From a virus (taxonomy: Duplodnaviria; Heunggongvirae; Uroviricota; Caudoviricetes): DNA of 21,213 bases. The notes under the pieces were generated by a model. That model worked only from the letters and a program-made list of their open reading frames with translations. It searched no databases and was not told where the DNA came from. Shown here one piece after another: positions 20,328-20,672 of the stretch. Positions within the stretch are counted from its first letter, which is position 1; each line of letters begins with the position of its first letter. The stretch is taken from positions 1 to 21,213 of IMG/VR virus record IMGVR_UViG_2534681774_000019, one strand, 5' to 3'. Both the position numbers and the translations under genes were made by a program.

Positions 20328-20672
20328 ATGAAGAAAAAATACGAACTGGTTGTTAAAGGGATAAATAATTACCCGAATAAGATTACTGTTACTGTGGCAC
20401 TGGAAATTGGTGGGTATCCGTCACTGTTGTTGCCAGATGTGGCGATTAGTCTTGACCGTACTGAAGATGCCACGCTGGAGTTTTACGAAGCTGAGGCGAA
20501 AAAGCAGGCGAAGCAGTTTTTCATGGATGTTGCTGCCGGGTTATGTGAAGGGGATGGTCCGTTGCCGGAAAAGCGCCCCGTAATTTTAGAGGCGCAGGAT
20601 GTGTTGATAACCTACAGAGGAAAACTACCGGGAATAATTACTGGTTCTCTGAAGACTCCACCGCTGGCCTGA
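20328..20672 (+). CDS. hypothetical protein (114 aa) between pinholin and endolysin
   Basis: ORF track; ATG 20328 preceded by GGGGAGAG; no signal peptide or TM segment evident. Confidence 0.5.
   Translation: MKKKYELVVKGINNYPNKITVTVALEIGGYPSLLLPDVAISLDRTEDATLEFYEAEAKKQAKQFFMDVAAGLCEGDGPLPEKRPVILEAQDVLITYRGKLPGIITGSLKTPPLA

Follow-up and report, generated by a model that had tools for sequence, protein, structure and literature searches.

A YdfR (DUF1327) family gene between the pinholin and endolysin genes of a prophage, and its tentative link to RNA turnover

The stretch of DNA considered here, hereafter the window, comprises positions 1 to 21,213 of the IMG/VR virus record IMGVR_UViG_2534681774_000019, a tailed phage (Caudoviricetes) sequence of 21,213 nucleotides (nt) in which a 114-amino-acid (aa) open reading frame (ORF) lies between a pinholin gene (S) and an endolysin gene (R). 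Both its identity and its placement show this ORF to be an ordinary member of the YdfR/DUF1327 family. The hidden Markov model search proposed in the original prediction, an annotation made from the letters of the window alone, gave a full-length match to the Pfam family DUF1327 (PF07041), in which residues 1-112 of the product aligned with profile positions 1-92 of 93 at 153.1 bits (cutoff 25; E = 2.4e-45); the protein also matched PHROG 406 (E = 4e-64). At the DNA level the gene is 100% identical to RefSeq genes annotated as “YdfR family protein” and encoding WP_000731267.1, the identical loci being those of E. coli FDAARGOS_536 and of the O111:H2 strain 12A. In alignments, all of the conserved N-terminal residues of the family (Y5, E6, L7, V9, K10, G11, N14, K18, V21, R44, E46, F52, E54, A55 and A57) are present in the window protein. 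A scan of the protein against NCBIfam gave no match, and PDB sequence searches, whether run with the protein alone or with a profile of the family, returned nothing meaningful. The gene, its family and the cassette arrangement are already known: essQ-ydfR-rrrQ has long been annotated in E. coli K-12, and RefSeq names the exact protein.

The genes on either side were assigned in the original prediction to a pinholin upstream and a signal-anchor-release (SAR) endolysin downstream, and profile searches agree with this. The upstream gene matched Pfam PF04971 (Phage_holin_2_1, P21 holin S; E = 9e-33), its PHROG match is a holin, and the identical RefSeq loci annotate a “class II holin family protein”. 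The downstream gene, which begins 50 nt after ydfR, matched PF00959 (Phage_lysozyme; E = 3.6e-23) and corresponds to a 534-nt “lysozyme” coding sequence in the identical loci. Its N-terminus is Ala/Gly-rich and weakly hydrophobic (LSAAVLALIAAGASAPDIL) and is followed by an E-x8-D-x5-T catalytic motif; by this N-terminal segment and motif the gene looks like one for a SAR endolysin. The holin stop codon (TAA, 20321-20323) is separated by the four nucleotides AGCG from the ATG of ydfR at 20328, and the Shine-Dalgarno (SD) element GGGGAGAG before that ATG is predicted to pair with the anti-SD sequence at -8.5 kcal/mol; among 20-mers of the window, about 11% reach -6 kcal/mol or lower and 1.6% reach -9 kcal/mol or lower. 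These values agree with the earlier description of a well-initiated ORF of 114 aa placed 4 nt past the holin stop. The product was also said to have neither a signal peptide nor a transmembrane (TM) segment, and hydropathy revealed none, since the Kyte-Doolittle 19-residue maximum is just 1.18, in a segment containing E and D, compared with 1.70 for the holin and 1.78 for the SAR segment of the endolysin (residues 9-27). Upstream of the holin gene lies a terminator-like hairpin through which late transcription would need to read, and presumably the lysis cassette is read by antiterminated transcription. Pattern scans of the + strand gave no promoter-like site from the ends of the esterase ORFs to the endolysin gene and no terminator-like site flanking the ydfR ORF. 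The coordinates of all of these features are collected in Table 1.

Table 1. Features of the lysis region of the window, followed by ORFs found between ydfR and R in related loci (in the coordinates of those loci)
Feature	Position	Strand	Remarks
ydfR-family gene	20328-20672	+	ATG to TGA; 114 aa; soluble, mildly acidic product
Conserved family core, codons 1-73	20328-20546	+	From AlphaFold2, conserved columns and dN/dS
Type-A C-terminal tail, codons 74-114 (CEGDGPLPEKRPVILEAQDVLITYRGKLPGIITGSLKTPPLA)	20547-20669	+	Predicted disordered
CCACC microhomology at deletion junction	20658-20662	+	Window 20580-20740 aligned with L028 3253-3885
S21-type class II holin (pinholin) gene	20108-20323	+	71 aa; Met1/Met4 dual start (MYQMEK...); basic C-terminal tail
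Shine-Dalgarno element GGGGAGAG	20313-20320	+	Within the final holin codons; serves ydfR
A/U-rich leader, 50 nt	20673-20722	+	Directly 5' of the endolysin start; kept in each ydfR-bearing locus compared
SAR-type endolysin gene (R21/RrrQ/RrrD-like lysozyme)	20723-21213	+	Gene cut by the window end
Terminator-like hairpin and T-run	20041-20069	+	Pattern scan; 12-pair stem, then TTTATTGTTG; between the esterase ORFs and the holin gene
Minus-strand ORFs between ydfR and R	L028 3464-3739; L070 3463-3726; L005 3500-3766; L004 3311-3589; L088 3817-4131	-	
Phage Evi ORF between ydfR and R	L095 2244-2540		Listed with the minus-strand ORFs of relatives

The gene had been regarded as unexpected in the original prediction, on the grounds that a pinholin gene is normally followed directly by the endolysin gene. 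A synteny comparison, the check proposed there, does not bear this out. Holin, YdfR and lysozyme were placed by tblastn in 91 loci (three annotated records, eight species-representative genomes and 80 from IMG/VR), three of which stop at a contig end beside ydfR; in every one of the 88 with enough flank on both sides, an S21-type holin gene is followed after 4 nt by ydfR and then by a lysozyme gene of the same type. The same gene order is found in the Qin prophage of K-12 (essQ-ydfR-rrrQ-rzpQ), in BP-4795 (S-ORF47-R), in mEp460 and in phage Evi. Of the 5426 complete E. coli genomes searched by megablast, 3006 contain ydfR-like DNA, at 6420 places in all, and S-ydfR-R is a very common arrangement; the S21-type holin was found at 8940 places in E. 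coli genomes, a count not directly comparable with that of ydfR as megablast misses divergent alleles. The direct juxtaposition of pinholin and endolysin genes is nevertheless real, as seen in the Shiga toxin (Stx) phage P27, but it is just one of two common arrangements.

It is the P27 cassette which best explains how the two arrangements relate. This phage lacks ydfR, its holin is 98.6% identical to that of the window, and its R begins 4 nt past the S stop with an identical GGGGAGAG-TAA-N4-ATG junction. Because R of P27 sits behind the same junction, ydfR is an optional cistron in the slot taken by R in the minimal cassette, and P27 shows that it is dispensable for pinholin/SAR-endolysin lysis. 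Phage 21 and the Sepvirinae Stx2a phages presumably also carry S-R cassettes without ydfR. Across the phage collection, tblastn found YdfR in 101 records and the S21-type holin in 434, so that roughly 23% of the phage records with this holin carry ydfR; they include Stx1a and Stx2c phages, H-19B, BP-4795, Stx2 phage 86 and mEp460. The family as a whole is small, since a set of 5.8 billion proteins contains 274 cluster representatives of it and a set of 1.84 billion representatives only 51 clusters at 50% identity, and in species-representative genomes it was found only in Escherichia and Shigella plus two contigs of metagenome-assembled genomes. These two contigs, one labelled Veillonella parvula (L008) and the other Bacillota bacterium (L010), carry an E. 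coli-type holin-ydfR-lysozyme arrangement in which identity to the window is 79-80% for the holin and 91% for the lysozyme, and they are almost certainly mis-binned Escherichia prophage DNA.

In many relatives, minus-strand ORFs of 87-104 aa and of several unrelated types occur between ydfR and R. They partly overlap the 3' end of long-form ydfR genes, and a hairpin (CGCCAGTG...CACTGGCG) then follows; a Pfam scan of these ORFs gave no family. The S-R interval would seem to be a hot spot at which accessory genes gather.

Structure prediction, likewise proposed at the outset, was carried out in two AlphaFold2 runs with alignments of 20 and 29 sequences, the second being more diverse. Both runs placed strands at residues 5-14, 18-27 and 38-43, forming an antiparallel sheet, and a helix at residues 50-73 (predicted local distance difference test score, pLDDT, about 70-89), and both left residues 74-114 without structure (pLDDT 31-48). 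In these models the protein would have two parts, a conserved N-domain of about 72 aa with a beta-beta-beta-alpha fold and an exchangeable tail which is probably disordered. A double-stranded RNA-binding domain (PF00035) was considered for the N-domain and rejected, as the alpha-beta-beta-beta-alpha fold with the signature of that family is not present; a relaxed Pfam scan of the N-domain gave only DUF1327. For codons 1-73 the ratio of nonsynonymous to synonymous substitution rates (dN/dS) is 0.18-0.23, measured against divergent alleles at which synonymous sites are near-saturated, and purifying selection on the amino-acid sequence of the N-domain is plain. Together with the full-length DUF1327 match, these ratios identify ydfR as a real gene rather than a chance ORF. 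A pooled dN/dS of 0.38 over the 80 IMG/VR loci was discounted as these loci had been chosen by their similarity to ydfR. Over the tail, dS is 0.12-0.17 and omega 0.6-1.15; the conservation of the tail was rejected as a sign of constraint because synonymous divergence is equally low, and this low dS points instead to recent recombinational spread.

The plasticity of the family lies in these C-terminal regions. Homologues consisting of the N-domain alone are found in phage Evi and in P0161, and elsewhere the N-domain carries interchangeable tails: the type-A tail of the window (…EKRPVILEAQDVLITYRGKLPGIITGSLKTPP), the K-12 type, the mEp460 type, or longer extensions which give proteins of 148, 176, 183, 206, 268 or 329 aa, the whole family ranging from 71 to 329 aa. 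Shuffling of C-terminal modules was seen in P0121, P0151 and P0153 and in the loci L047 (1161-2147) and L088 (3001-3804); in P0151 the type-A tail is joined to a different, coiled-coil N-terminus, and a motif, Y-[ST]-[IF]-x-[IV]-K, recurs in several tails. Pfam and PHROG scans of the long-form extensions (176-329 aa) gave only PHROGs of unknown function. Compared with the 176-aa long form in L028, some 470 bp are gone from the window between the LKTPP codons and the conserved R leader, a deletion which took out a coiled-coil-like extension and a minus-strand ORF; the final two codons (LA) and the stop of the window gene come from what was formerly intergenic sequence. The 114-aa allele of the window therefore arose by deletion from a long-form allele (176/183 aa). 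This short allele is the commonest among the close relatives that were fetched.

The presence of ydfR also has a consequence in cis. There is no recognisable SD in the 50-nt leader of the window R, for which the predicted anti-SD duplex has an energy of +0.6 kcal/mol; the corresponding values are +1.2 for K-12 rrrQ and -8.5 for R of P27. In K-12 the stop codon of ydfR and the start codon of rrrQ overlap (ATGA), and because of this overlap R is probably translated there by coupling. It is thus partly shown that ydfR takes the holin-coupled ribosome-binding site which otherwise serves R. As R is left without an SD, the gene would change the translation of R relative to that of the holin, whatever its protein does, and the ratio of holin to endolysin synthesis should be altered wherever ydfR is present.

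As to the protein itself, the one functional study found is that of Gopel et al. (2026, RNA Biol, PMC13232886), on the K-12 homologue; the literature under the name DUF1327 gave one unrelated genomics paper, and that on essQ, rrrQ and ydfR nothing functional. In a two-hybrid screen with RNase G as the bait, residues 1-72 of K-12 YdfR were recovered three times (PMC13232886). This fragment corresponds to the conserved N-domain, in which the window protein is 47% identical over residues 1-74. In the same study, full-length YdfR and RNase E 1-597 gave a two-hybrid signal, RNase E 1-598 co-eluted with Strep-YdfR and DNase-resistant nucleic acid co-purified with the protein (PMC13232886). The original prediction, which suggested that the gene could be a lysis regulator or a moron, had named as contrary evidence a widespread cassette component with a known non-lysis function. 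The gene is indeed widespread, and the second half applies in part, in that RNase E binding and the co-purification of RNA are reported for the homologue from K-12.

Taken together, these observations lead us to favour, tentatively and with a probability of roughly 0.3-0.4, a reading by homology with K-12 in which YdfR, a cytoplasmic protein made late and dispensable, docks through its N-domain on RNase E, at the N-terminal half, and acts on RNA turnover, in addition to the effect of its gene in cis. ydfR would be transcribed within the antiterminated late transcript and translated from the SD inside the 3' end of the holin gene, so that its synthesis should match that of the holin in time and, roughly, in rate. 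The product would be a small soluble cytoplasmic protein and, from homology to K-12 YdfR, its N-domain would most likely dock on RNase G and on RNase E, in the latter on the membrane-proximal N-terminal half, perhaps carrying RNA. Its target would then be RNA turnover as the lytic cycle closes, and not the membrane or cell wall, whilst in cis the gene would occupy the ribosome-binding site of R and leave R behind an SD-less leader.

However, this reading should be considered with caution, as several points weigh against it. The link to RNase E was measured for the K-12 allele only, which has a different tail and an N-domain of limited identity to that of the window. With the shorter RNase E constructs 1-415 and 1-498, full-length K-12 YdfR gave no two-hybrid signal, the authors could not exclude that a contaminating protein had retained the RNA, and overexpression changed few transcripts and left growth unaffected (PMC13232886). 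The protein is acidic (pI 5.5), which is unusual for an RNA binder. The 91-locus sample leans towards close relatives of the query, and a role in lysis would be just as compatible with the strict position of the gene within the cassette.

A broader version, which we consider improbable, would make the YdfR family an unrecognised class of cytoplasmic lysis-cassette proteins which couple lysis by pinholin and SAR endolysin to RNase E of the inner membrane, with the exchangeable tails serving as adaptor modules. Lysis mRNA might be stabilised or processed in this way, or membrane-bound RNase E might be used as a platform. If this were true, YdfR would be a true regulator of lysis timing or of late mRNA and not passive cargo.

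Of the other explanations, the one which fares best, though we find it doubtful, is that YdfR is a cytoplasmic lysis-timing factor, either an antiholin similar to T4 RIII that binds the cytoplasmic C-terminal tail of the pinholin or a chaperone or holder of the SAR-endolysin N-terminus similar to Gp1 of mycobacteriophage Ms6. It would then tune the time at which the pinholin triggers or the amount of membrane-tethered endolysin. The position of the gene is invariably the one between S and R, with translational coupling to S and in K-12 also to R through the ATGA overlap, yet about three quarters of the phage records with an S21-type holin do without it and have R directly after S. The acidic protein could be matched to the basic C-terminal tail of the holin, and its own conserved, predicted-disordered tail resembles a binding peptide; however, the holin tail is nearly the same in the window, P27 and K-12 essQ, giving no sign of co-variation with ydfR, and the holin already has an antiholin of its own through its Met1/Met4 dual start. 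Neither a TM segment nor similarity to any holin or antiholin was detected in YdfR (Pfam, PHROG), and the unaltered growth of K-12 under overexpression counts against this role also (PMC13232886). Of the features of an antiholin of the S107/S21-71 or the T4 RI/RIII type, YdfR has neither the similarity to a holin nor the membrane or periplasmic topology. An envelope phenotype does exist, in that the Keio ydfR deletion scored positive (envelope-leaky) in the chlorophenol red-beta-D-galactopyranoside (CPRG) screen, as listed in the supplements of Paradis-Bleau et al. (2014). Because K-12 ydfR (L092 4055-4366) overlaps the start of the rrrQ lysozyme gene, we suspect this to be a polar effect, with the kanamycin cassette driving rrrQ.

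We regard as unlikely the proposal that YdfR is accessory cargo unrelated to either lysis or RNA decay, with a role in anti-defence, exclusion or host manipulation, which happens to be carried in a recombination-tolerant slot of the late operon. This comes close to the moron of the original prediction, a suggestion which holds in part. The gene is present or absent at the same site in close relatives, as seen from the 101 versus 434 records and from the P27 junction, and its base composition departs modestly from that of its neighbours, G+C content overall and at third codon positions (GC3) being 0.47/0.47 in ydfR, 0.54/0.67 in the holin gene and 0.53/0.58 in the endolysin gene. The lower GC3 and the variable neighbourhood suggest an acquired gene; the unrelated minus-strand ORFs and swapped C-terminal modules of the S-R interval, and a family which is narrow and young, are in keeping with cargo. 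What does not hold is the notion of an autonomous moron, which was rejected: ydfR is embedded translationally in the lysis operon and, as it has no promoter or terminator of its own on the + strand, would not be expressed from the prophage. K-12 ydfR had almost no RNA-seq reads in uninduced cells (PMC13232886). Moreover, a protein made so shortly before lysis has little time in which to carry out most functions directed at the host, and the PADLOC defence models gave no match, bar one chance hit (E = 0.05) on a long form.

A further alternative would place the main value of the gene in cis, as a translated spacer which uncouples or recouples endolysin from holin translation, the protein being of minor importance. 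The SD and 4-nt junction are identical whether ydfR or R comes after S, R lacks an SD in ydfR-bearing cassettes, and the C-terminal half is freely exchanged, shortened or extended, giving lengths between 71 and 329 aa. A pure spacer would not conserve amino acids, however, and the N-domain, with a dN/dS of about 0.2, is retained even where the tail has been lost; the 50 untranslated nucleotides between ydfR and R also make coupling by termination and reinitiation unlikely in the window, and as a sufficient account of the gene we find this quite improbable. That the ORF is a chance one or a decaying pseudogene without function is hardly credible, since, although the window allele is a deletion derivative and many frameshifted or truncated variants occur in databases, the full-length Pfam match, the purifying selection, the strong SD and the identical 114-aa allele in many independent prophages and phages all speak against it.

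The remainder of the window is that of a prophage whose nearest relative is in strain 12A, to which positions 788-21213 are 99.8-99.9% identical where aligned, leaving aside an insertion sequence found only in the window; the 12A prophage adjoins mlrA and has no stx genes. The inserted segment, of about 1.95 kb (1835-3785), lies among ead/Ea22-like early genes, and its two ORFs (1919-2680 and 2677-3699, minus strand) encode proteins of 253 and 340 aa which, by eye, look like the IstB helper and IstA transposase of an IS21-family (IS100-like) element. A NanS-p-like SASA carbohydrate esterase gene (18106-19958) is split near 19455 into ORFs of 455 aa (DUF1737 and SASA) and 158 aa (DUF6645). Compared with strain 12A, in which the gene is intact and encodes 617 aa, one nucleotide has been lost (AA to A), and the split reflects either a pseudogene made by frameshift or an error of sequencing. 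Three tRNA genes (anticodons CAT, TCG and TCT; the first is tRNA-Ile in RefSeq) lie at 17368-17617, and a full-length match to the small RNA family STnc100 (137.7 bits) at 17693-17883; this region is downstream of a DNA methyltransferase gene, where Stx phages carry stx. Rfam also gave matches to isrK (61.6 bits, 8671-8747) and to the C4 antisense RNA (82.4 bits, 8772-8859) just 5' of genes for Rha-family regulators, and these suggest an antisense-controlled antirepressor module in the style of P1/P7 in the immunity region.

For this window the outcome is of little consequence, as the gene is a routine annotated family member in its normal position. A large share of E. coli prophages, the clinically important Stx1 and Stx2c phages among them, nevertheless produce YdfR along with their holin and endolysin, and should it modulate lysis timing or the stability of late mRNA, the kinetics of Shiga toxin release would be affected because stx lies in the same late transcript. 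The placement data, the origin of the short allele by deletion and the SD-less endolysin gene are small additions which make the function of the family easier to test.

When compared with known systems, the cassette of the window is closest to those of the Stx and other lambdoid phages. BP-4795 (ORF47), H-19B, the Stx1a and Stx2c phages, Stx2 phage 86 and mEp460_055 all have the same S-ydfR-R order, the closest of their proteins being 97% identical and also of 114 aa, and the window prophage shows no substantive difference from these phages, although it is without stx genes. P27 shares the holin and lysozyme types and the junction, and its R begins where ydfR begins in the window. YdfR of the K-12 Qin prophage (b1555, UniProt P76160) belongs to the same family, occupies the essQ/rrrQ slot with the same 4-nt spacing and has the N-domain whose identity is given above; it is 103 aa long, has an unrelated tail (...EKLSEKVESYLQHQYSFKIENPANKHERPHHKYL) and its stop overlaps the rrrQ start, whereas the window has a type-A tail and a 50-nt gap. 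Two small soluble phage proteins offer models for a role in lysis: RIII of T4 is a cytoplasmic antiholin, and Gp1 of Ms6 is an endolysin export chaperone whose gene lies directly upstream of the endolysin gene. Neither sequence nor significant structural similarity of YdfR to RIII or Gp1 was found, and the likeness would be one of functional analogy only and not of membership. Proteins which bind and modulate RNase E are likewise familiar, among them RapZ, RraA/RraB, Srd of T4 and Dip of phiKZ, and in Srd, a small protein which acts on the catalytic half of RNase E, there is a precedent from phage. It is RapZ which K-12 YdfR resembles in its two-hybrid behaviour and in its co-purification with RNase E's N-terminal half (PMC13232886).

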